NCBI GenBank assembly: GCA_043799385.1 | Contig: JAZDNV010000013.1 | Span: 1 to 36,885, forward strand | Direction: 5' to 3' | Length of the DNA: 36,885 bases | DNA from: Candidatus Aenigmatarchaeota archaeon | GTDB lineage: Archaea > Aenigmatarchaeota > Aenigmatarchaeia > GW2011-AR5 | Shown here: positions 321 to 36,885 of the stretch, in pieces | Numbering within the stretch: position 1 is the first letter of the stretch | Layout of the letters: each line of letters begins with the position of its first letter | Program-made: the position numbers and the translations under genes | Notes under the pieces: model-generated | Database searches by the model: none | What the model saw: the letters and a program-made list of their open reading frames with translations, nothing else | What the model was told of the DNA's origin: nothing

Positions 321-589
321 ATGATTGAAGTCTTCGTCGCCGGGTTCCTTGGCGGCGTTATACGCGGCCTTGTCGGCATAACAAAATATCTCACAGGTTC
401 GCCGTCGAAGAAGCGACGAATAAGGACGGATTACCTATGCCTGACGCTGCTGTCGTCCGGTGGATTGGGTTTACTCATGGGCTTTTCATTACCGATGACG
501 TGCGGTTCGCAATGCTCGCCGGTTATGCAGGCACGGACTTCATCGAGAACATGTTCAAGATAAAGATGAAGAAGCAGAACTGGGATTAG
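321..589 (+). pseudogene. Small membrane protein with a -1 frameshift (pseudogene or sequencing error)
   Basis: The first frame gives MIEVFVAGFLGGVIRGLVG...LGLLMG. From the T4 run at 483-486 the -1 frame gives FITDDVRFAMLAGYAGTDFIENMFKIKMKKQNWD*, with the stop at 587-589 just before the next ATG (591). Confidence 0.75.
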
Positions 590-2274: not shown

Positions 2275-2811
2275 ATGTATCGAGAAAATTCTGTAGAAGT
2301 GCCAATGCACTCAGGATTTCAGTCAGCTTCGCCCACGCTTATCTACACAGAAACCATTGCCACATGCCTTGGCCTCGGCTTTTACAGAAGGAAGACAAAG
2401 CAAGGCGCTCTATACCATATAGGCGGTGCTGAGGGTGTTTCAATAGATTCACTCAGGGAGGTTGTCGAGATGGAAGTCAGGCGTCTTTCATCCGGCATTG
2501 ACGTATGCTTTGTGAGCGGTTTTGCTACCTTGGACAAGGGAACCCAGAAGCAGATAAGAGATGCACAAAAAGAATCGCTCAGAATTTTGAGAAAGCACAG
2601 AAAAAGCTTCAGGGGAGAGATAGAAAAATACTTCTGCGAGATTCCTGGACAATACATAAAATATTTCGCGCTTGACTGCAAGTCAGGCAGGTTCGATGTC
2701 AGGAAGGACATTTTTCCGAAAGATGTATTGCATGATGCTGACACCCTTTCTGACGCTCTTTCTGCAAGACTGGGAAAAAACAAAGAAGAAAGTGGGCCCG
2801 GCAGGAATTGA
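2275..2811 (+). CDS. Divergent CheD-like (Cys-His deamidase fold) protein
   Basis: IYTETIATCLGLGFY...KQGALYHI resembles the CheD motif T-LGSC(V/I)...GGMxH; the 3' end overlaps tRNA-Val antisense. Confidence 0.5.
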   Translation: MYRENSVEVPMHSGFQSASPTLIYTETIATCLGLGFYRRKTKQGALYHIGGAEGVSIDSLREVVEMEVRRLSSGIDVCFVSGFATLDKGTQKQIRDAQKESLRILRKHRKSFRGEIEKYFCEIPGQYIKYFALDCKSGRFDVRKDIFPKDVLHDADTLSDALSARLGKNKEESGPGRN

Positions 2812-2898
2812 ACCGGCGACCTTCGCCAAGTTGCGACCTTCTTCGCGCATCCTAAAAGGTCACGTCAAGGCGACGTCATACCACTAGACTACGAGCCC
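2793..2898 (-). tRNA. tRNA-Val(GAC) with a 34-nt intron at 37/38 (intron 2829-2862)
   Basis: Acceptor GGGCTCG/CGGGCCC, anticodon stem TCGCC/GGCGA, loop TT-GAC-G|intron|T, T loop TTCAATT; BHB-like junction with intron helix GACCTT/AAGGTC. Confidence 0.92.
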
Positions 2899-3956: not shown

Positions 3957-4072
3957 GCACTAGTGGTCCAGTGGTAAGACCCGAGCTTCCCAATGAACTT
4001 CTTTTCTAAAGAAGTTCAATCAAGAAAAAAAGGAGATAGCTCGTGACCCGGGTTCGAGCCCCGGCTGGTGCA
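3957..4072 (+). tRNA. tRNA-Gly(CCC) with a 45-nt intron at 37/38 (intron 3993-4037)
   Basis: Acceptor GCACTAG/CTGGTGC, anticodon stem CGAGC/GCTCG, loop TT-CCC-A|intron|A, T arm CCGGG-TTCGAGC-CCCGG; central helix TTCC/GGAG. Confidence 0.92.
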
Positions 4073-23245: not shown

Positions 23246-23887
23246 TCAGAAACCTGACAGTAATTCTTCCAGTTTCTCTTCCGGGTTCTCGGCCTTGACA
23301 ACTGCTGTTGCAAGAATGATGCCAGAACACCCAAGTTCCATTGCTTTTTTCACATCATTACCATCTGCTATACCTGCGCCACACAGCACTGGAATATCAT
23401 TTATCGCATTCACTCGTCTGATCGTTTCTGTTATCACCTCTGGCTTTACCTTGCTAACGCTTACAAGTGTTCCAATCAATTCGGGCGGCTCTATTGCTAT
23501 ATAATCAGGAAGGAACGCTGCAATTTTCTCAGCCAATTCTGGATTTTCTGCACACACGGTGGAAATCAAGCCAACTCTCTTACAGACATCGATACATTTT
23601 TTTATAATTTCGATATCACAGCGATCTTCTGCATGGTTTATCAGAACGCCTTTTGCTCCGTTCTCCTTCAGGCACTCGGCCAAGTCTTTGCCAGTGTTGG
23701 CGCCATATAATATAGGGTCTACATGCTGGGCAAAGACGTTCTTCATTACACGGCTAACGCGGAATAAATCAGCGTTCTGGACGGCAATAAAAACATCATA
23801 ATCCTTGAACTTCTCAGCGAGCTTCTCTGCACTCACTCCTGTCGACTCTCTATACGTCTTTAGATTCACGATGAATAACTTTTTCAT
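23246..23887 (-). CDS. tpiA: Triosephosphate isomerase, archaeal type
   Basis: NLKTY, AQHVDP, LINHAE, EPPELIG, LCGAGI. Confidence 0.95.
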   Translation of the reverse strand: MKKLFIVNLKTYRESTGVSAEKLAEKFKDYDVFIAVQNADLFRVSRVMKNVFAQHVDPILYGANTGKDLAECLKENGAKGVLINHAEDRCDIEIIKKCIDVCKRVGLISTVCAENPELAEKIAAFLPDYIAIEPPELIGTLVSVSKVKPEVITETIRRVNAINDIPVLCGAGIADGNDVKKAMELGCSGIILATAVVKAENPEEKLEELLSGF

Positions 23888-24723
23888 ATCTTACCAGCTG
23901 AGCCAAAAAGCTCGATTTTTTTCTTTACGACATCCTTTACCGCTTCAATCGCGGCAGGGAATATCTTGTACGGCACGGTTTCATCCTTCTTTAGTTCATC
24001 GCGCAACGCTGTAACGAACGCCAGTCGCAGCTCTGTGTTTATGTTAACCTTTGCGATGCCGCTCTTTATCGCCCTTCTTATATCGTTATCCGCAATTCCA
24101 GAACCGCCATGCAATGCCATCGGTATTTTTAATTTATTCAGCTCATTCAGCCTGTTGAAATCCAGCACTTTCTTTTTTTGGGAAAGGCCATGATAATTGC
24201 CTATCGATACGGCAAGAACATTGATTCCTGTTTTTTTCACGAATTCCTTTGCCATTTTCGGGTCTGTTAAATCTTCCTCTTTTATCTCTACATTTTTATG
24301 CAACGTCGATGAACCTATTATCCTTCCGAGCTCGCCCTCAACGTTGATATTAGTCCTATGGGCGATTTTTGCTGCATTTTTTGTGATTCTGATATTCTCC
24401 CCAAACCGCATGTTCGACCCATCCAGATGAACAGACGTGTAGCCGGCATTGATGCAATCACGAACCATTTGCAGCGATTTTCCGTGATCCAGGTGCAATG
24501 CAAGCGGTATTTTTTCCATGATTGCCTTCAGAATAGCGGCAACATAATTTATTCCTGCATACTTCGCCTCGCCTTCACTTGTAGAAATAATGACAGGAGC
24601 ATGCATCTCGTTAGCCGCAGCTACTATCGCTTTAGTAATCTCCAGATTACACGTGTTGAACGCACCGATTGCATAGCCTCCACGATAGGCACTTAGTAGC
24701 ATCGCCTTGCTGCCAACTAGCAT
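23884..24723 (-). CDS. fba: Class II fructose-bisphosphate aldolase
   Basis: AIGAFN, HLDHG, VEGELG, GNYHG, LHGGSG, KVNINTE; start taken at 24723. Confidence 0.93.
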   Translation of the reverse strand: MLVGSKAMLLSAYRGGYAIGAFNTCNLEITKAIVAAANEMHAPVIISTSEGEAKYAGINYVAAILKAIMEKIPLALHLDHGKSLQMVRDCINAGYTSVHLDGSNMRFGENIRITKNAAKIAHRTNINVEGELGRIIGSSTLHKNVEIKEEDLTDPKMAKEFVKKTGINVLAVSIGNYHGLSQKKKVLDFNRLNELNKLKIPMALHGGSGIADNDIRRAIKSGIAKVNINTELRLAFVTALRDELKKDETVPYKIFPAAIEAVKDVVKKKIELFGSAGKI

Positions 24724-24763
24724 AATATTAATTATGGATTCAAGGTATAAAAACAATCTATAT

Positions 24764-26071
24764 TCACTTTATCCTATACGAATTCTCAGCCAGGAAGATA
24801 GAAGCAGAGACTATGTCGCCGAGACCGACAACATGCCTGCTCTCTTTTGCCATGCGGTTTGGTACAATTATGATAGTCTCGTCATCTGTCTCAGCAACGC
24901 CATCTCTCATAGCAATCCCTTTCTTTTTCAGGAATCTTGTAAGCTCTGCCATCTTTTTCATGCCAAGTGCAGATATGGGAACATTTAATCCATTTTTTAT
25001 GTCATCAAAGCATTTTATTTCTCCGACTGCTTTGGCTGCTGTTGCGATTGTGGCAAATTCCAATGACTTTTTTATCTCATCGTTGCTGAGATAATCTTTT
25101 CTGCACACGGCAAGGAAATAGCCTTTTCGATGGAAGTGAACCTTTCTTGTTTTAGATTTTTTCAAAATCTTTTGCAGGCCGAGAAAAACCGAGGCGATGT
25201 CATCTCTTGCAACCTTTTCTGCCAGATTTTTCTCTTTTAGCAGCTCTAATGTATCAATCAGCTCAGGACCATCCAGGCCGATGCTGTCAACTAGAGGCGT
25301 TATTCGTCTTATCATGTATCGCTTTATTTTTTCGTTCTTTGTGAAGACGAACTCGATGTGCACAGGCTTCCTGTTTCGTTTTAACTCTCTAAGTGTTTCT
25401 TCTGCTATCTTCAGCTGATCACTGTACGTTGTTCCGTCTTTGTATTTGTTCCTGATATTCTGTAATCCGGAGAACAGGGCAAAATCTATTTTTCCAACAG
25501 GTATTTTTATATTCCTTAACCGGTATTCGTCCAAACGCGAAGCAGCAATGAATCTGGTTTTTCCTTTCGCCGTTATACCGAATAATTTCTCGCCTTCATC
25601 GAACTCGAAAATCCAGTTTGTCTTTTTCCTGTCATTCCTTGCTGATGCTTTTGGATGTTTTAACCGTGGTAGAAGAATTACCTTATCATTGAAAAGCGAG
25701 CACTGCTCTCTTGAAAGAAGCGGCGTAAAGACTATTGACTGAACGCCCAGCGATGACAAGAAGTTCGCCATTATACCTGCCTGGCCGCCCATCCTTTTCT
25801 CTCTATGGATAAAATTCATTGCCATCCAATTCTGCATCTCTTCGTTCATTCGTAATTCCAGACCTTCTCCTTTGCTCATTGAATATAATAATCCGGCAAA
25901 GAAATCGTCCACGGTTTTTATCTCATTCGGCAATTTCTTAAACGGCTTGTATTTCCACAACCTTTCCATATCTTTGCTGATGTGAACTATGCTGTCTATG
26001 TTGGAGTTGTACGCAAGAAAGGCACCTTTGATGCTTTTGATATTATTCTTCACGTCTTCAAGCACAGGCAT
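24764..26071 (-). CDS. ADP-dependent glucokinase/phosphofructokinase
   Basis: AYNSNID, RMGGQAGIMAN, NWIFEF, RFIAASR, HIEF, VGLGDIVSA. Confidence 0.9.
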   Translation of the reverse strand: MPVLEDVKNNIKSIKGAFLAYNSNIDSIVHISKDMERLWKYKPFKKLPNEIKTVDDFFAGLLYSMSKGEGLELRMNEEMQNWMAMNFIHREKRMGGQAGIMANFLSSLGVQSIVFTPLLSREQCSLFNDKVILLPRLKHPKASARNDRKKTNWIFEFDEGEKLFGITAKGKTRFIAASRLDEYRLRNIKIPVGKIDFALFSGLQNIRNKYKDGTTYSDQLKIAEETLRELKRNRKPVHIEFVFTKNEKIKRYMIRRITPLVDSIGLDGPELIDTLELLKEKNLAEKVARDDIASVFLGLQKILKKSKTRKVHFHRKGYFLAVCRKDYLSNDEIKKSLEFATIATAAKAVGEIKCFDDIKNGLNVPISALGMKKMAELTRFLKKKGIAMRDGVAETDDETIIIVPNRMAKESRHVVGLGDIVSASIFLAENSYRIK

Positions 26072-26088
26072 AACAATATTTATTATCC

Positions 26089-26547
26089 ATGACTAATAAG
26101 ATTATGATTGCGTTATTTCCAGGGCGTTTTCAGCCACTGCACAGAGGGCATCTGCACGCCATAAAATCGGTACTGAAGAAATTCGATAAAGTAGTGATAA
26201 TGATAGGCAGCATAAACAAAAGTGATGAAAATAACCCCTACTCTTTTTTAAAGAGGAAGAAAATGCTGAACGCCGCGTTGAAAAAATACAAAAACCGCTA
26301 CAGAATTATAGGAATAGCAGATATCGATGACAACAAATGGACTAAAGCAGTAAATAAGGCAAAATTCGACGTAGTTGTCACAGGCAACTCTTGGGTAAAA
26401 AAATGCCTGAGAGGCTTCAAGACGATTAAACCTAGCCTACTGAAACCAAAGACTTACAACGCCACAAGAATTCGATATTTGATGAAAAACGGAAAAAAAT
26501 GGCAGCACCTAGTTCCGAAAGAGATTCTCACGATTATTGAATACTAA
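26089..26547 (+). CDS. Nicotinamide-nucleotide adenylyltransferase (NadM-like)
   Basis: GRFQPLHRGH, IGS...NPYS, ATRIR, WQHLVP. Confidence 0.85.
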   Translation: MTNKIMIALFPGRFQPLHRGHLHAIKSVLKKFDKVVIMIGSINKSDENNPYSFLKRKKMLNAALKKYKNRYRIIGIADIDDNKWTKAVNKAKFDVVVTGNSWVKKCLRGFKTIKPSLLKPKTYNATRIRYLMKNGKKWQHLVPKEILTIIEY

Positions 26548-26568
26548 ACAATACCAGTCGTCCGTTTT

Positions 26569-26817
26569 TCACTTGAACTTTTTTGCAGCCCAATTGTATA
26601 CACAGGCAAAGACATAACCGAAGATATATGAGAATACAAGACAGCTGACAAGCGCATATATCATTAGGCTCCAGTTAGTCCAAAAGCTTGGATAAACTAA
26701 ATTCATCACAGAAGGCTCCTTCAAAAGTCCGTGCCAGATGTACGCTACCAAATCAAAAATTAGCGCAATTATCGCAAACGTCGCTGCTAAGACTTTGGGG
26801 TTTAGTTTTTCTGCCAT
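26569..26817 (-). CDS. Small two-TM membrane protein (DUF5676-like)
   Basis: Two TM helices ending in GYVFACVYNW. Confidence 0.7.
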   Translation of the reverse strand: MAEKLNPKVLAATFAIIALIFDLVAYIWHGLLKEPSVMNLVYPSFWTNWSLMIYALVSCLVFSYIFGYVFACVYNWAAKKFK

Positions 26818-26839
26818 TTTTTAATTTTCTTTTTCTGAG

Positions 26840-27676
26840 TTAATAAAGTTTTATCACTTCAGAAATCTTTTCTATCAGATCACTGGCAAGCAATGATTGC
26901 TTTTTCTCCTTTGCCGCAAGGTCGCCAGCTGCGCCATTAATATAAGCAGCTGCGCAGGCGGCGTCAAATACGTTAATGCCTTGCGCCAGAAGAGAACCGC
27001 ATATTCCTGCCAGTGTATCGCCTGTTCCTCCTTTAGTCATGTACGGGTTGCCTGTTTTGTTCATTTCGGTTTTCCTGCCGTCTGATATCACATCGACAAA
27101 GCCCTTGAGAAGAATCGTGCAGCCAAGCTCTTTTGCAATCTTTTGGACAAATTCCTCTCTTCTGCTTATATTCCTTCTGAGCTTTATTCCGGATAACGCA
27201 AAAAATTCCCTGGTGTGCGGAGTGATTAAGTGATTGCTCTTTATCGCTTTCTTGTTTTTAGCGACTGCATGAATTGCGTCAGCATCTATCACGCATGGAA
27301 TGTCCGTTCTTTTAAGAAATTCGTCTACTGTCATCATCGTCTCAATGTCGCGGCCTAGGCCGCCACCGACGACGACTGCTGCCTTCTTTTCTGCTAACTT
27401 CAGAAGATCGTTCAAATGCTCCCTTCTCAGAAAATCGCCTTTCAGCGGATAGGTTATCAAATCAGGGCTATAGGAGGCGATTATATTTGCTGCTCGCTCT
27501 GGCGCGACCACTGTAACTAAATCGCAGCCGCTACGCAAAGCAGCCAAGGCATTGAACGTCGGCGAGCCATGATACGATTTGCTGCCACCGACGACGAGCA
27601 GCGAGCCGAAATCGTATTTGCAGCTCCAGTCATCCCTTTTTTTATAGACCTTTTTCAGTATTGCCTTTGATATCAT
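26840..27676 (-). CDS. nnrD: NAD(P)H-hydrate dehydratase (YjeF C-terminal domain, stand-alone)
   Basis: VGGS..YHGSP, GGGLG, IDADA, ITPHTREF, LLKG, GNPYMTKGGTGDTLAG. Confidence 0.92.
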   Translation of the reverse strand: MISKAILKKVYKKRDDWSCKYDFGSLLVVGGSKSYHGSPTFNALAALRSGCDLVTVVAPERAANIIASYSPDLITYPLKGDFLRREHLNDLLKLAEKKAAVVVGGGLGRDIETMMTVDEFLKRTDIPCVIDADAIHAVAKNKKAIKSNHLITPHTREFFALSGIKLRRNISRREEFVQKIAKELGCTILLKGFVDVISDGRKTEMNKTGNPYMTKGGTGDTLAGICGSLLAQGINVFDAACAAAYINGAAGDLAAKEKKQSLLASDLIEKISEVIKLY

Positions 27677-27732
27677 AATTAAATCTTGTCACAATGAAAT
27701 AAAAAGTTTTAATCCGAATAAATCAAATATAA

Positions 27733-28725
<993 letters not shown>

Positions 28726-28767
28726 AATTCACTGCTCTTTTCAATATCCGCAAAATTGTGATTGAAA

Positions 28768-29931
28768 ATGAAAACGATGGATGATTTTGACTTCTATGGG
28801 AAAAGAGTATTGCTACGTGTAGACATAAACTCGCCTGTCGTCGATTACGTTATACAGGACTCGTCAAGAATCAAGGCGCATGCAAATACCGTCAGGGAAT
28901 TGATGAATATGGGTGCAAAGGTGATAATTCTCGCCCATCAGGGTCGTCCAGGCGACAAGGATTATACGAACCTTGAGCAGCACGCAAAACTACTGAGCGA
29001 GCATGCCGGCAGGCATGTTACTTTCGTGGATGATGTCTACGGAAAGAAGGCGTTGGGAAGCATAAGGGGGTTGAAGAACGGCAGTGCCATTCTTCTTGAT
29101 AACGTACGCTCGGTTAAAGAAGAATTGGAAAAGCTAAGCCCGGTGGAATTCGCAAAAACAGATTTCATAAAAACCCTCAGCGGCGAGGCAGATGTTTATG
29201 TTAACGATGCGCTGGCCATTTCGCATAGGGCTAACGCTTCTGTGGTAGGCTTTATCGATTTGCCGTGCATAGCAGGCAGGGTCATCGAAACTGAGCTAAA
29301 CGCATTGAAGCGGGTGGAAAACCCGGAAAAGCCATTGACGCTGATATTGGGCGGCAAAAAACCAGAGGACAGATTAAAGTTGGTGAAGAAGGGATATTAC
29401 GATAATGTCCTCACAGGCGGCGTCCTGGCTAACATGTTCCTGGTCGCCAGGGGTTATAATCTAGGAAAGAGCGGTGAATTCATAGAAAATAATTACAAAG
29501 GATTTTTACCCACAGTAAAAGAACTCGAGAATGGTGGAATTAAAACTCCTGTGGATATCGCATTTGACGATAATGGAAGAAAAGAGATCGGAATTGACGG
29601 TTTGCCGATAGAAAAATACATAGAGGATATAGGCTCAAGGACGATAACTGAATACAAGAACGTTATAGCAGATAGCAGAACGATTTTTGTTGGTGGAACA
29701 ATGGGCGTGACAGAAAATAAGAGCATGCAGAAGGGGACGATGGAAATACTGAGGGCTGTCGCTGATTCCAACGCTTTTTCCGTTGTAGGTGGTGGCCATT
29801 CCGGCGACGCAATAGAAGAGTTCGGCATACCAAAGGGTAGGATTTCTTATGTCAGCCTGTCCGGCGGCGCGCTATTCGCATACCTTGCGGGCGAAAAACT
29901 GCCTGGATTAGAGGCGTTGAAGTATTATTAG
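28768..29931 (+). CDS. pgk: Phosphoglycerate kinase
   Basis: LRVDINSP, AHQGRPG, LLDNVR, VNDA...HR, GGGH, SLSGGA. Confidence 0.95.
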   Translation: MKTMDDFDFYGKRVLLRVDINSPVVDYVIQDSSRIKAHANTVRELMNMGAKVIILAHQGRPGDKDYTNLEQHAKLLSEHAGRHVTFVDDVYGKKALGSIRGLKNGSAILLDNVRSVKEELEKLSPVEFAKTDFIKTLSGEADVYVNDALAISHRANASVVGFIDLPCIAGRVIETELNALKRVENPEKPLTLILGGKKPEDRLKLVKKGYYDNVLTGGVLANMFLVARGYNLGKSGEFIENNYKGFLPTVKELENGGIKTPVDIAFDDNGRKEIGIDGLPIEKYIEDIGSRTITEYKNVIADSRTIFVGGTMGVTENKSMQKGTMEILRAVADSNAFSVVGGGHSGDAIEEFGIPKGRISYVSLSGGALFAYLAGEKLPGLEALKYY

Positions 29932-29968
29932 TGTTAGCTTAATATCTCTCTTTTCCTATTAATTAAAT

Positions 29969-30751
29969 ATGGATTTTGTCCAGAGAGTCAGGGATTTGAA
30001 AATACAGGGAGCAACGAACATCGCAATCGAATCTCTGAAGCACTTGAAAAAATTCGCAAGAAAAAATGGTTTTGGTCCTAAATTCGATAATGAGTGTAAG
30101 CGCTTGCTAAACGCAAGGCCGACTGCTGTTGTTCTGTATAACGTAATCGAAGAGCTGAAGATTGGTAAATCGCTGCGCAAAATCGATGAATTGCTGAAAA
30201 GATTGGGAGAGGTTGACAAAAAAATAGATAAATACGGTGTGAAAATATTCAGAAATTCCGGGGTGATGAACCATTGCCATTCGACTGAAGTCGTGTCTCT
30301 GATGAAATTCGCAAGAAAAAAAATAAAGTATGCGATAGTCACTGAAACTCGACCGAAGAATCAGGGAGTGAAAACGGCGAACGAGCTAAGCGACGCGGGC
30401 ATAAACGTGGTGTTCATAGTAGATTCGGCAATAGGGTATTTCATGCCTGACGCTGATTTTGTTCTCGTCGGAGCGGACGCGATAAGAAAAGAGGGTGTTG
30501 TAAACAAGATAGGAACGTTGCCGATGGCAATGGTCGCGAGAAAATTCAATAAGCCTGTTTATGTAGTTGCATCAACGTTCAAGATAGACAGAAGGAAAAA
30601 TTTTGAAATTGAAATCAGGAAAGGCAGCGAAATCCAGAGAACGAAAGGCATAGAGATAAATCCAGCTTTCGATATAACGCCATGGAAGTATATAAGCGGT
30701 GTCATAACAGAATATGGAATAAAGAAGCCAAAGGAGATGAGAACATTATGA
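29969..30751 (+). CDS. Ribose-1,5-bisphosphate isomerase (eIF-2B-like family)
   Basis: IQGA, ARPT, HCHS (catalytic Cys), ETRP..QG, VGADAI, NKIGT, NPAFDITP; overlaps the AMP phosphorylase start. Confidence 0.88.
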   Translation: MDFVQRVRDLKIQGATNIAIESLKHLKKFARKNGFGPKFDNECKRLLNARPTAVVLYNVIEELKIGKSLRKIDELLKRLGEVDKKIDKYGVKIFRNSGVMNHCHSTEVVSLMKFARKKIKYAIVTETRPKNQGVKTANELSDAGINVVFIVDSAIGYFMPDADFVLVGADAIRKEGVVNKIGTLPMAMVARKFNKPVYVVASTFKIDRRKNFEIEIRKGSEIQRTKGIEINPAFDITPWKYISGVITEYGIKKPKEMRTL

Positions 30752-32271
30752 AGCTCAAAGTTCGTTGCATAGACCTTGACGCAGGCGGCAAAACAATAGC
30801 AATAATAAACAGCGAGGATGCCATAGAATTCGGCGTGCATCCGCTGGAGAGACTAATTCTGAGAAAAGGCCGGAAGACCCTGACCGTAATCGTTGACATC
30901 ACCAAAAGATTCGCAAAGCCTGGCGAGATTATCGCGTACAAGGAGGTAACGGATATACTTGGCCTGAAGAACGGCGACATAATAAACGCGGAAAGGCGTG
31001 AGGAATTGCTATCAAAGAAATACATAAGAAAGAAGATAAACGGGTCTGAGCTGAACTACAACGAAATGCTTGCAATAGTGAAGGACGTGCTTGAGCGAAA
31101 TCTAAATGATTTAGAACTGGCCGCGTTCATAACTGCTCTGCAGATACGCCATCTGACGATGAGCGAAAATGCAGCATTAACAAAGGCGATGATAGACACG
31201 AGCAAAAAAATAAAATTTTCCGGCACAGTCGTGGACAAGCACAGCATCGGCGGGATATCAGGCGACAAGACGACGCTGCTTCTCGTACCGATAATCGCGT
31301 CAACAGGGTTGATAATACCGAAAACGTCATCGCGCGCAATAACGTCACCAGCAGGCACAGCCGACAGAATGGAAACGTTCGCTCCTGTTGACTTGGGTAT
31401 AGAAGAGATAAAGAAGGTCGTGAAAAAATGCCGCGGCTGTATAGTCTGGGGAGGCTCGCTTGAGCTATCGCCGGCAGACGATATGTTCATCCAGGTTGAA
31501 AAGCCATTATCATTTGACCCCATGCTAATGCCTTCTGTTGTTAGCAAGAAAAAAGTTGTCGGCTCGAAGTTTGTCATAATAGATATACCGTGCGGTTCTG
31601 GCGGAAAGATGAAGACCAAGGAAGACGGTGAGACACTAGCAAGAAGCTTCATTGCATTGGGCAAGAAATTCGGGATGAAAATCAACTGCGCGATGACATG
31701 CGGTGACCAGCCAATCGGCCGTGCAATTGGTCCGGCGCTGGAAGCGCGCGAAGCCTTGGAAACGATAATGAATAGGGGACAATACGCCAAAGGCATCAAT
31801 CGGTCTGCACCGGATTTAGTCGATAAAGCCACAACAGTAGCCGGCCTTCTTTTGGAGATGTGCGGCAAAGGCGATAAAAAAACAGCTGAAAAAATACTTT
31901 ACAGCGGAAAAGCGGAAAAAAAGCTGCGCGAGATAATTGCAGCACAGGGCGGAAACCCCGATATAAAACCGGAAGATATACCGTTTGCAGATTACAAGAT
32001 TAGCATTAAATCTGGCTTCAGTGGAATTGTATCCGGAGTCAATGATGACACCATCGCTTATCTTGCAAGAGTAGCCGGCGCTCCGAAGGACAAGCTTGCG
32101 GGAATTATGCTGAACAAAAAAATATGCGATAGAGTCGAAAAAGGTGAAACGCTATTCACAATATATGCAGAAAGGAAACCAAAACTGAATGAAGCAGTAA
32201 AAATATCAAAAACCCTTGATATTTTCTCAGTGTTCAACCGCAAGAAAAAGATGCTGATTGAAGAGATATGA
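30748..32271 (+). CDS. AMP phosphorylase (archaeal NMP phosphorylase)
   Basis: N-terminal extension domain, DKHSIGGISGDKTT, PKTSSRAITSPAGTAD, QPIGRAIGPALEA, AGAPKDK; start 30748. Confidence 0.93.
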   Translation: MKLKVRCIDLDAGGKTIAIINSEDAIEFGVHPLERLILRKGRKTLTVIVDITKRFAKPGEIIAYKEVTDILGLKNGDIINAERREELLSKKYIRKKINGSELNYNEMLAIVKDVLERNLNDLELAAFITALQIRHLTMSENAALTKAMIDTSKKIKFSGTVVDKHSIGGISGDKTTLLLVPIIASTGLIIPKTSSRAITSPAGTADRMETFAPVDLGIEEIKKVVKKCRGCIVWGGSLELSPADDMFIQVEKPLSFDPMLMPSVVSKKKVVGSKFVIIDIPCGSGGKMKTKEDGETLARSFIALGKKFGMKINCAMTCGDQPIGRAIGPALEAREALETIMNRGQYAKGINRSAPDLVDKATTVAGLLLEMCGKGDKKTAEKILYSGKAEKKLREIIAAQGGNPDIKPEDIPFADYKISIKSGFSGIVSGVNDDTIAYLARVAGAPKDKLAGIMLNKKICDRVEKGETLFTIYAERKPKLNEAVKISKTLDIFSVFNRKKKMLIEEI

Positions 32272-33870: not shown

Positions 33871-34665
33871 ATGCAATATATGATAGCAAGGTACGGCGAA
33901 GTCTTTCTCAAGAGCGATTTCGTAAAAAAACGCATGAGGAAGATTCTTGTAGACAACATAAAGCATGATTTACAGAAAAATGGCATTGACGCGTCGGTGT
34001 GCGCAGGCGATATAATAAGAATTTACACAAACAGCGTAAAAAAAACCGAAACTACTCTTAAGAGGACGTTTGGCATAGTCTCATTCTCGAGCGTATTCGT
34101 GTGCAAAAAGGATATGGATGATATATGCACGACTGCGAAAAGTCTTGCAAAAAATTTTTCTGGCACTTTCGCAATCGAGGCAAAGCGTTCTGACAAGTCG
34201 TTCCCTTACACGAGCCAGGATATAGAAAGAATCGCGGGAAAAGCAATCGCAGACACAGGGCTGAAAGTGAATTTGACAAAACCGAAAAATAAAATTTACA
34301 TAGACGTCAGAGACGAGTGCCACGTTTACAGCAATGTTAATCCCGGTCCTGGTGGTCTGCCATTAGGCTCAGGCGGCATGGCGATCGGCTTTTCTGATAA
34401 CCTTCTCGCCAATTGGCTGATGATGAAACGTGGCGTGAAGGTAGTTCTTGTCGGAAAAGACCGCAGAAACTATAAAAAGTTAAAGAAGTGGAACAGCAAA
34501 TTGTCATTTCATAAAATAAATAAAATTCAAGATATCAGCAAAATAGCGAAAAAGCAAAACATAAGGGCGGTGATATACGATAAGCCGGTTAAAAACCTCT
34601 TGTCATTGAACCCGCTTGTCGGTTTTTCAGAAAAGGAAATAAGAGCAATGAAAAGACTCATTTAA
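33871..34665 (+). CDS. ThiI-like THUMP-domain protein with a degenerate PP-loop domain
   Basis: ARYGEVFLKS, FGIVSFS, FAIEAKRSDKSFPYTS, VNLTKP, GPGGLPLG, LMMKRG; the SGGxDS motif is missing. Confidence 0.8.
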   Translation: MQYMIARYGEVFLKSDFVKKRMRKILVDNIKHDLQKNGIDASVCAGDIIRIYTNSVKKTETTLKRTFGIVSFSSVFVCKKDMDDICTTAKSLAKNFSGTFAIEAKRSDKSFPYTSQDIERIAGKAIADTGLKVNLTKPKNKIYIDVRDECHVYSNVNPGPGGLPLGSGGMAIGFSDNLLANWLMMKRGVKVVLVGKDRRNYKKLKKWNSKLSFHKINKIQDISKIAKKQNIRAVIYDKPVKNLLSLNPLVGFSEKEIRAMKRLI

Positions 34666-34749: not shown

Positions 34750-34836
34750 GCCGGAATAGCCAAGCCTGGTTTACGGCGGTAGTCTCGAAAACTACTGTGG
34801 CTTCGCCACGCGCAGGTTCGAATCCTGCTTCCGGCG
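34750..34836 (+). tRNA. tRNA-Ser(CGA), no intron
   Basis: GCCGGAA/TTCCGGC, GTAGT-CT-CGA-AA-ACTAC, long variable arm, discriminator G. Confidence 0.95.
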
Positions 34837-34884
34837 CGTTAATTCTTTAACTTTAAATAATATTTTTGACAGACAGATATTGCT

Positions 34885-35987: not shown

Positions 35988-36057
35988 TAATATTTATCAA
36001 GGCTTGGGAAAATTTAGCTTTAAATTTTCTCCCGTTTAATTAAAAACAAGTGATGCC

Positions 36058-36519
36058 ATGTTTTTTGCAAAGAAAGATAAAGAGAAGTCGATAGAAGAGA
36101 TAAAGAAAGCGATGGAAGAGGCGCCCATCGACGAACTTGATGATGATTTAGTTCTTAATGAGGATATCAGGGAGCGGCCAAGAGAAGAATCCGCCGCGCC
36201 GCTGTTCGTTAAGGTTGAAAAGTACCGTGAGATATTGAACGATATACAGGAGATGAAAGTCTTTGTCTCTGGGTTGAAGCAGCTGTTCAACATCATCCAT
36301 GAGCTTGAGACGGTTAGAAGTGATGCGCTGAACATACTCAGAACGACCACGCAGCGGCTAGAGAAAAGCATAATAGAGATAGATTCAGCGCTATTGAGGC
36401 CGCGCGGCCTAGAGATTGAGCCGCATGGAGAAGCCGAGGTCTCGCATATCGAAGATTCGTTACAGGACCTGCAGCGGCAGCTTAGCTTGCTGAGAAAGGA
36501 TCTGCAGGGTTTGAAGTAA
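36058..36519 (+). CDS. Conserved coiled-coil hypothetical protein
   Basis: APLFVKVEKYREIL motif followed by heptad repeats. Confidence 0.75.
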   Translation: MFFAKKDKEKSIEEIKKAMEEAPIDELDDDLVLNEDIRERPREESAAPLFVKVEKYREILNDIQEMKVFVSGLKQLFNIIHELETVRSDALNILRTTTQRLEKSIIEIDSALLRPRGLEIEPHGEAEVSHIEDSLQDLQRQLSLLRKDLQGLK

Positions 36520-36593
36520 CTGCTTTTAAATTTTGCCCTTGTTATTAATAATCTAGAGCCACAAATCTCTCTAGAAGAAATGAGATTATAAGG

Positions 36594-36624
36594 TTTTTGA
36601 TTAACCTTTTTCCCAAAAAGGTTA
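36594..36624 (-). repeat. Hairpin-plus-ATCAAAAA element directly upstream of tRNA-Leu
   Basis: Minus strand TAACCTTTTT-GGG-AAAAAGGTTA-ATCAAAAA, similar to the elements in the Gly(CCC) and Ser(TGA) introns. Confidence 0.55.
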
Positions 36625-36625
36625 T

Positions 36626-36801
36626 GCGAGGGTAGCCAAGTGGCCAAAGGCGCAAGGCATTTTTGAGTCTTGAAGCACATAGACGATTGGCCGTCTAGCT
36701 GTGTCAAATGATAGCGATACTCAAGATCTTGTCCCTTAGTGCATGACGACTTTAGTCGTCTGTGAGGAATGGATTCGTCGGTTCGAATCCGGCCCCTCGC
36801 A
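36626..36801 (+). tRNA. tRNA-Leu(CAA) with two non-canonical introns: 62 nt at 30/31 (36657-36718) and 30 nt in the variable arm (36740-36769)
   Basis: GCGAGGG/CCCTCGC-A; spliced anticodon arm CAAG|A-CT-CAA-GA-TCTTG pairs perfectly; the second intron has a full BHB (CCTT/GAGG, bulges AGT and AAT); mature length 84 nt. Confidence 0.88.
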
Positions 36802-36885
36802 TAATTTTTCGTATATCTCCAGCCACTCTGTAAACTGCACATTCAACGCATTGAAGATGTAAGCAGCCGCCTCCCCGCGCAGGAG

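Follow-up and report, generated by a model that had tools for sequence, protein, structure and literature searches.

The stretch of DNA analysed here (36,885 nt of contig JAZDNV010000013.1, hereafter the window) contains near its end a tRNA-Leu(CAA) gene interrupted by two introns. The first of these, intron 1, includes a sequence antisense to the anticodon arm of the tRNA in which it resides, followed by motifs resembling box D and box C of archaeal C/D guide RNAs. We estimate a probability of about one half that intron 1 is a small box C/D-type guide RNA for 2'-O-methylation of the wobble cytidine (Cm34) of its own tRNA-Leu(CAA). The features of the gene are collected in Table 1. One orthologous gene, locus L002 from an uncultured archaeon, was available for comparison.

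Table 1. Features of the tRNA-Leu(CAA) gene and its introns, in window coordinates.
Feature	Position	Strand	Basis
tRNA-Leu(CAA) gene with two introns; mature product 84 nt	36626..36801	+	Rfam tRNA model, ARAGORN, exon layout of L002
Intron 1 (62 nt), separating tRNA positions 30 and 31	36657..36718	+	Removal restores the anticodon arm; homologous site in L002
Predicted guide (antisense), pairing with mature positions 38 to 30; G36665 opposite C34	36661..36669	+	Sequence; kept in L002
Box D-like TTGA; first three bases prolong the antisense over positions 29-27	36670..36673	+	Sequence; equivalent to CTGA of L002
Hairpin between the boxes, GCACA + TAGACG with CGTCTA + TGTGT, GC bulged	36675..36704	+	Sequence; inner stem in minimum-energy fold
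Box C-like ATGATAG	36708..36714	+	Sequence; ATGATGG in L002
Central splice helix strand (AGCG, with CGC of tRNA 25-27) and 3' splice-site bulge (A, T / A31)	36713..36719	+	Bulge-helix-bulge scoring
Intron 2, 30 nt, variable arm, outside the guide	36740..36769	+	Bulge-helix-bulge scan; removal leaves 15-nt variable region

The gene was missed by ARAGORN without intron mode and by the Rfam scan of the whole window at the gathering threshold. When the last 386 nt of the window were scanned alone, the Rfam tRNA model covered positions 36626-36801 end to end with 34.3 bits. Deletion of 36657-36718 by script restored the anticodon arm and ARAGORN then read tRNA-Leu(CAA), in agreement with the initial annotation, which had placed an intron between positions 30 and 31 of this tRNA. 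The Leu(CAA) reading is a regular class II tRNA of 84 nt, the length and variable arm of which agree with those of L002.

Candidate splice sites were scored for the bulge-helix-bulge motif as an exon helix, a central helix of 4 bp, a 3-nt bulge and an intron helix, mirrored on the 3' side. Three of the four central pairs were present at the 30/31 site of the window (CGC of tRNA positions 25-27 with GCG at 36714-36716), the exon helix had 2 bp, and the intron helix (CATTT with AAATG) fitted only with an offset of 2 nt, that is, in a relaxed form. The score of the site was modest and did not rank among the 12 best that the scan listed, and the alternative splice site 31/32 scored far worse. In L002 the 30/31 site had the top score of the scan, with three of four central pairs, an intron helix of 6 bp and an exon helix of 2 bp, and the context GCGAT / ACTCAAGA at the 3' splice site is common to both genes. 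The locus thus has a bulge-helix-bulge tRNA intron whose removal restores the cloverleaf, in the window in the relaxed form. The splice motif was not seen in the minimum-energy folds of the introns and precursors, and these folds gave no decision between the kink-turn (K-turn) described below and competing helices.

The antisense element of intron 1, TTTTGAGTCTTG at 36661-36672, is a 12-mer complementary to mature tRNA positions 27-38 with one G-T pair, and a script search recovered it as the longest stretch over which the intron is complementary to the mature tRNA (script indices 28-39 correspond to tRNA positions 27-38, the D loop having an extra base). It runs into TTGA, which is followed by a hairpin and by ATGATAG, all at the coordinates given for them in the initial annotation. 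The arms of the hairpin are 36675-36679 (GCACA) and 36680-36685 (TAGACG) against 36692-36697 (CGTCTA) and 36700-36704 (TGTGT), with the GC at 36698-36699 bulged. A K-turn or kink-loop (K-loop) can be formed from the boxes of both introns, as judged by their sequences. In the window it would consist of the tandem sheared pairs G36710/A36673 and A36711/G36672, followed by T36712/T36671, A36713-T36670 and G36714-C36669. The fifth base upstream of TTGA, G36665, is paired with C34, as had been proposed, and in both introns a guide directly upstream of the box places a Watson-Crick G-C pair at this N+5 position on C34, a plausible target.

Once the K-turn takes the box, the usable guide is 8-9 bp (36661-36669), and nearly all of it is directed against exon 2 (31-38, plus G30), so that the core target is present already in the precursor. 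The earlier claim that the target spans the exon junction and exists only after splicing was therefore upheld for the 27-30 extension, which crosses the junction and overlaps the D box, but not for the guide part, which pairs with exon 2 alone (31-38). Similarly, it had been claimed that the order C-guide-D arises only in the circularised intron. In the circularised window intron box C is joined to box D via the junction by 17 nt, the guide included, with the opposite side closed by the hairpin; for the window the claim is true. This short path is not kept in L002, where 47 nt including a hairpin separate box C from box D round the junction, nor is it needed: the linear order guide-D-loop-C is that of an ordinary D'-guide/K-loop half of an archaeal small RNA (sRNA), and no circle is then required.

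L002 was found by a pattern scan of contigs (D arm, gap of 45-75, CTCAAGA, gap of 25-55, T loop), which returned two loci, the window's own genome not being among them. The other locus, L001, was dropped as a chance match in apparent coding sequence (frames not checked) of a Saccharibacteria contig. L002 was recognised as a tRNA-Leu(CAA) gene by the Rfam tRNA model with 40.5 bits and was the only orthologue from the scan. In the window the tRNA gene is preceded by an open reading frame (ORF) of 153 aa (36058-36519, plus strand), which has no Pfam or NCBIfam match and looks coiled-coil-like by eye. A homologue lies directly upstream in L002, with 56% amino-acid identity over 93 residues, and the ORF and the tRNA-Leu gene form a syntenic pair; the window and L002 genes are thus orthologous but distant.

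The intron of L002 is 65 nt long (454-518, minus strand) and occupies the same 30/31 site. As this intron is common to both genes and the variable-arm intron is absent from L002, the shared intron is the old one. Its antisense, TTTGAGTT at 483-476 (minus strand), pairs with positions 30-37, and an 11-mer version of it with positions 27-37. It is followed by a consensus CTGA (475-472), a 7-nt spacer, ATGATGG (464-458), CGAT and the splice site. Here too C34 is the partner of the N+5 base, and the guide has 8 bp as compared with 9 bp in the window. The 7-nt spacer between D and C corresponds to the archaeal C'/D' K-loop geometry and the hairpin of the window is absent there; the short spacer would thus form the usual K-loop in L002, and the window carries a hairpin inserted in that loop.

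The antisense and the boxes were accordingly kept in the sole orthologue, with compensatory changes, and the rest of the intron could not be aligned. With blastn the alignment of the introns was limited to the last ~15 nt (36704-36718), inside a 28-column match running into exon 2, and in the MAFFT alignment of the window and L002 the 3' end of the intron was the only well-conserved block. The guide blocks were left unaligned because they are placed differently in the two introns. Conserved across both are the guide, D, a loop or stem-loop, C, CGAT and the 3' splice site. Position 1 of box D faces position 6 of box C as T-A in the window and as C-G in L002, which is a compensatory change, and the pair beyond it reads C-G (window) and T-G (L002); the K-turn pattern of L002 is otherwise as in the window, with G-C and G-T as its last two pairs. 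The covariation that the initial annotation expected of a K-turn was therefore borne out. Compensatory change was present also between tRNA position 29 and the intron base facing it (A/T in the window, G/C in L002). Both introns keep ATGAT, whereas its partner in the splice helix differs (CATTT in the window, ATCATC in L002, in registers 2 nt apart), which argues that splicing is not the only constraint on the motif.

A further feature of L002 is a 12-nt insertion near 37/38, beside the anticodon (435-446, minus strand), which leaves a 7-nt middle exon (453-447). The insertion holds CTGA and TGATAGG, and its splice motif was weak in the scan. Together with the preceding intron end it resembles a tandem repeat composed of a copy of the anticodon loop plus a TGAT motif. 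A likeness of 10/13 bases between the TTGA-plus-hairpin of the window and the 5' hairpin of L002 was estimated to be within chance.

Chance was evaluated with dinucleotide-preserving shuffles of the introns, which rule out effects of composition but not other biological reasons for an antisense. A 12-nt complement anywhere in the tRNA was reached by 3 of 2000 shuffles of the window intron when at most one G-U pair was allowed, and by 12 of 2000 when at most two were allowed. The length of the 11-mer antisense of L002 (27-37) was reached in 31 of 2000 shuffles. A composite arrangement, defined after the data had been seen as at least 8 pairs ending 1-2 nt before NTGA, TGAT downstream and N+5 on C34, was reached in 2/20000 shuffles of the window intron and in 8/20000 shuffles of the L002 intron.

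With a guide that abuts box D, a box C that completes the K-turn pairs and an N+5 base that falls on a residue known as a C/D target, intron 1 looks like a box C/D guide. Pairing of the antisense with exon 2 uses C32 and T33, which the bulge-helix-bulge fold needs for pairing with G24 and G23. The antisense and the splice fold thus compete for the same two nucleotides, and the splice motif does not explain the antisense. The following pathway would accommodate the sequence elements and the way they are arranged, the fact that one divergent orthologue retains them with covariation, and the position of the splice site. The splicing endonuclease would cut intron 1 out at the relaxed bulge-helix-bulge motif, and the excised intron would probably be circularised. 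TTGA and ATGATAG would fold to a K-turn or K-loop binding L7Ae and then Nop5 and fibrillarin, and the 8-9 nt directly upstream of TTGA would pair with the anticodon loop (30/31-38) of the precursor or mature tRNA-Leu(CAA), acting either in cis or in trans. By the N+5 rule, the 2'-O-methyl group would then be placed on wobble C34.

Several results weigh against a C/D guide. Its architecture is not bipartite: a second box pair was not found by eye in either intron or in the flanks. The CTGA of the 12-nt mini-intron of L002, 13 nt after ATGATGG, was rejected as part of such a pair as it has no matching terminal box C, and the arrangement ATGACGA, 12 nt, GTGA in intron 2 of the window was rejected as its GACGAC/GTCGTC stem explains it better. 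Nor did a regular expression for two-motif sRNAs give any full-pattern match to a complete stand-alone C/D sRNA in the window, where loose C...D patterns matched three times (26222-26269, 32042-32113 and 27279-27337). According to the literature, archaeal ribonucleoproteins (RNPs) built on one motif showed little activity in vitro and lacked site specificity, and the sRNAs that archaea have in nature are described as bipartite without exception (PMC1635284). Assembly on one motif is possible, since crystals of a half-mer RNP have been obtained (PMC6239191).

Other objections to a C/D guide concern the elements themselves. The guides are short and AT-rich, that of L002 having six Watson-Crick and two G-T pairs. 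The consensus of box C is RUGAUGA and that of box D is CUGA, and the boxes of the window depart from both (ATGATAG 5/7, TTGA 3/4); those of L002 agree in 6/7 (ATGATGG) and 4/4 (CTGA) positions, and each of the four boxes has the invariant G-A dinucleotide. The hairpin of the window does not abut the G-A pairs, since A36674 lies between them on one strand and five bases (36705-36709) on the other, and the C-stem is irregular. The elements also have competing partners. TTGA of the window can pair, in the minimum-energy fold, with TCAA at 36704-36707, the guide of L002 forms a 7-bp hairpin with a near-copy of the anticodon loop inside the intron, and ATGAT is within the intron helix of the splice motif, fully so in the 6-bp helix of L002.

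The antisense moreover runs on through the D box over positions 27-29 (TTG in the window, CTG in L002) and covaries at position 29. A D box bound in a K-turn could not use this pairing, and the C/D model therefore leaves the antisense through the box unexplained. It may be a coincidence, as the box is always opposite positions 26-29 when N+5 falls on 34; it may be a trace of the origin of the element, or it may represent a second state of the RNA. Neither intron matched any C/D family of Rfam at E values up to 10, only the tRNA model matching the locus, and two weak rows of C/D families in the scan of L002 (E 0.46 and 2.3) fall outside the intron. L7Ae, Nop5 and fibrillarin were not among the 42 ORFs scanned of the 97 window ORFs of at least 75 aa. 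The comparison as a whole consists of two sequences, the window and L002.

A more specific version of the guide hypothesis, which we consider unlikely, is that intron 1 is a natural half-mer, that is, a single-K-turn guide in the 30/31 intron of tRNA-Leu(CAA) conserved across divergent DPANN archaea. The antisense would then extend deliberately through the D box across the exon junction and switch between two states, one a duplex of 12 bp with the anticodon arm of the spliced tRNA and the other a guide for Cm34 bound in the K-turn, perhaps active only as the circular excised intron.

The complement of 11-12 nt to positions 27-38 might also serve another end than methylation, with the box-like motifs as its by-products. 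It could hold the precursor in a non-spliceable or protected state or time the splicing, or the circular intron could bind or titrate its own tRNA. We regard such a role as possible, though it is rather doubtful. It is mainly supported by the continuation of the unbroken complement through the presumed D box, three of the four bases of which are antisense to C27-A28-R29 and covary with position 29. Further support comes from the minimum-energy fold of the window precursor, which pairs 36661-36668 with exon 2, from the mutual exclusion of this pairing and the bulge-helix-bulge fold, as a switch would show, and from the presence of a single K-turn candidate. However, a purely antisense role does not account for the A with which NTGA ends in the two introns, and it leaves unexplained why ATGAT is conserved when its splice-helix partner is not, why the boxes covary from T-A to C-G, and why N+5 lands on C34, a C/D target. 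We know of no precedent for an antisense-only role of an archaeal tRNA intron, and none turned up in the literature search.

Splicing architecture alone would account for part of the same observations: ATGAT...GCGAT and the 5' end of the intron would build the relaxed motif, the hairpin would stabilise it, and the antisense and TTGA would be products of chance or leftovers, for example of a local inverted duplication of the anticodon arm. GCG at 36714-36716 does pair with tRNA positions 25-27, AT / A forms the 3' bulge, the intron helix takes up ATGAT, and the tandem-repeat-like copies of the anticodon loop in L002 (453-447, with a near-copy at 472-466) suggest local duplications. Yet the splice motif makes no use of the antisense, the two are incompatible, and in the two introns the antisense is placed differently relative to the hairpin with the same 3' neighbour NTGA and the same C34 register. 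The rarity of the composite arrangement in the shuffles (2/20000 and 8/20000) and the expectation that neutral intron sequence should not survive at the 56% identity of the neighbouring protein likewise make this explanation improbable. That the splice sites are wrong, or the gene a pseudogene, so that the intron is not excised as proposed, is very improbable. In intron mode ARAGORN gives tRNA-Gln(TTG) for the locus, the intron being 82 nt long, and the strict 30/31 score of the window is, as noted above, a modest one. With the Gln reading, however, the anticodon stem is mismatched and the extra arm has 25 nt, and this reading was rejected in favour of the Leu(CAA) reading, which gives a regular 84-nt class II tRNA like that of L002. 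In addition, 30/31 is the best of all sites scanned in L002, the 31/32 alternative scores far worse, and the synteny of both genes is conserved.

To our knowledge, tRNA-Trp is the only firm case of a tRNA modified by a guide from its own intron, to which tRNA-Met of Nanoarchaeum equitans adds a putative one; the introns of these two tRNAs are the closest analogues of intron 1. The tRNA-Trp intron lies at the canonical site 37/38 and has both C/D and C'/D' motifs, two guides (for C34 and U39) and box C 5' of box D. Intron 1, by comparison, resides at 30/31 of tRNA-Leu(CAA) and has one box pair and one predicted guide, with box D before box C. The intron of the euryarchaeal pre-tRNA-Trp (Haloferax volcanii; sR50 in Pyrococcus) guides the formation of Cm34 and Um39 in its own tRNA, is spliced at a bulge-helix-bulge motif and has a pairing between guide and target that competes with the splice fold (PMC7994747, PMC11408192). 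Intron 1 resembles it as a tRNA intron with a C/D-type antisense to its own wobble C34, with a bulge-helix-bulge motif and with a predicted guide pairing that competes with the splice fold. The 66-nt intron found in elongator tRNA-Met of N. equitans is a stable and abundant RNA that carries a single box D, a single degenerate box C and a strong hairpin, and is a putative C/D RNA (PMC3491384). It resembles intron 1 in its DPANN host, its size (62-66 nt), its degenerate box C, its internal hairpin and its single D and C boxes; it differs in the tRNA concerned and in that the N. equitans RNA has been observed, whereas that of intron 1 is predicted (PMC3491384).

The target itself has been predicted before. 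In Pyrococcus, the predicted targets of stand-alone sRNAs are the wobble bases of the tRNAs Leu(CAA), Leu(UAA), Met and Trp (PMC7994747, PMC7668247). C34 of tRNA-Leu(CAA) is among the predicted positions in P. furiosus, and Cm34 was observed in some tRNAs, Leu(CAA) not being named in the accessible text (PMC7668247). The predicted target nucleotide and tRNA species are by the N+5 rule the same as those of intron 1 (PMC7994747, PMC7668247), but the Pyrococcus C34 sRNA is an independent gene with regular two-motif architecture. A permuted arrangement is likewise on record: in the gene of N. equitans sRNA24 box D is upstream of box C, and the C-to-D order is restored only in the circle (PMC3491384). 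Unlike the window intron, sRNA24 is not intronic, and it is listed among sRNAs all having C/D and C'/D' elements (PMC3491384). A minimal single-domain C/D RNA works in eukaryotes, with one K-turn, a terminal stem, and boxes separated by a 14-nt antisense and a 1-nt spacer (PMC7994747). The circularised window intron resembles this design in having box C, 17 nt including the guide, box D and a hairpin-closed stem, but the minimal design is engineered and eukaryotic. The initial annotation knew of no description of such an intron. No tRNA-Leu intron guide turned up in the literature search, including the accessible passages of PMC11408192, PMC3218864 and PMC3491384; the reported N. equitans tRNA-Met intron and permuted sRNA24 (PMC3491384) and the predicted Pyrococcus C34 sRNA (PMC7994747, PMC7668247) restrict the claim.

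The second intron of the gene had a bulge-helix-bulge score of 12.0, the joint top score with one other site in the scan of the variable arm. Its motif has all four central helix pairs (one of them G-T) and flanking helices of 3 and 2 bp, with the GACGAC/GTCGTC hairpin inside. After its removal the variable region has 15 nt, the same as in L002, which has no intron there. Introns were present in three of the five tRNA genes of the window. Those of tRNA-Val(GAC) (2793-2898, minus strand; ~34 nt) and tRNA-Gly(CCC) (3957-4072, plus strand; ~45 nt, with 13 nt between the intron helix and the central helix) are at the canonical site 37/38, and by inspection neither has a guide-plus-box arrangement. 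Many disrupted tRNA genes and splicing endonucleases of broad specificity have been reported in DPANN lineages, and the intron-bearing tRNA genes of the window fit with these reports (PMC5829648).

The window is archaeal and encodes an AMP phosphorylase, an IF-2B-family protein, an ADP-dependent sugar kinase and an MJ-type S-layer protein. Among named relatives, those closest to the AMP phosphorylase are from Candidatus Aenigmatarchaeota, with at most 67% identity, which suggests a DPANN archaeon as the host. A cluster at 23246-32271 includes TIM, a class II aldolase, an ADP-dependent kinase, a bacterial-type GAPDH, PGK, the IF-2B-family protein, which is likely a ribose-1,5-bisphosphate isomerase, and the AMP phosphorylase. 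The last two suggest the archaeal AMP-salvage pathway that has been reported for DPANN archaea; the window ORFs scanned included no RuBisCO gene. An ORF of 264 aa (33871-34665, plus strand) has the N-terminal ferredoxin-like and THUMP domains of ThiI only, without the PP-loop domain, and is located just upstream of tRNA-Ser(CGA) at 34750-34837. A 268-aa open frame on the minus strand (36036-36842), antisense to the entire tRNA-Leu gene and the ORF upstream of it, had no family match and is most likely spurious.

If intron 1 is a guide for Cm34, the tRNA-Leu(CAA) case at a non-canonical site would mean that the arrangement is recurrent, and there would be a selective reason to keep an odd intron. 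A functional single-K-turn form would bear on whether archaeal C/D RNPs need two motifs for specificity and would offer a very small natural scaffold for studies of RNP assembly. Annotators would also have grounds for screening DPANN genomes, in their long tRNA introns at non-canonical sites, for half-guides that standard C/D finders would miss. The half-mer, if real, would contradict an obligatory bipartite architecture for site-specific archaeal C/D RNPs and would tie wobble methylation to completed splicing.

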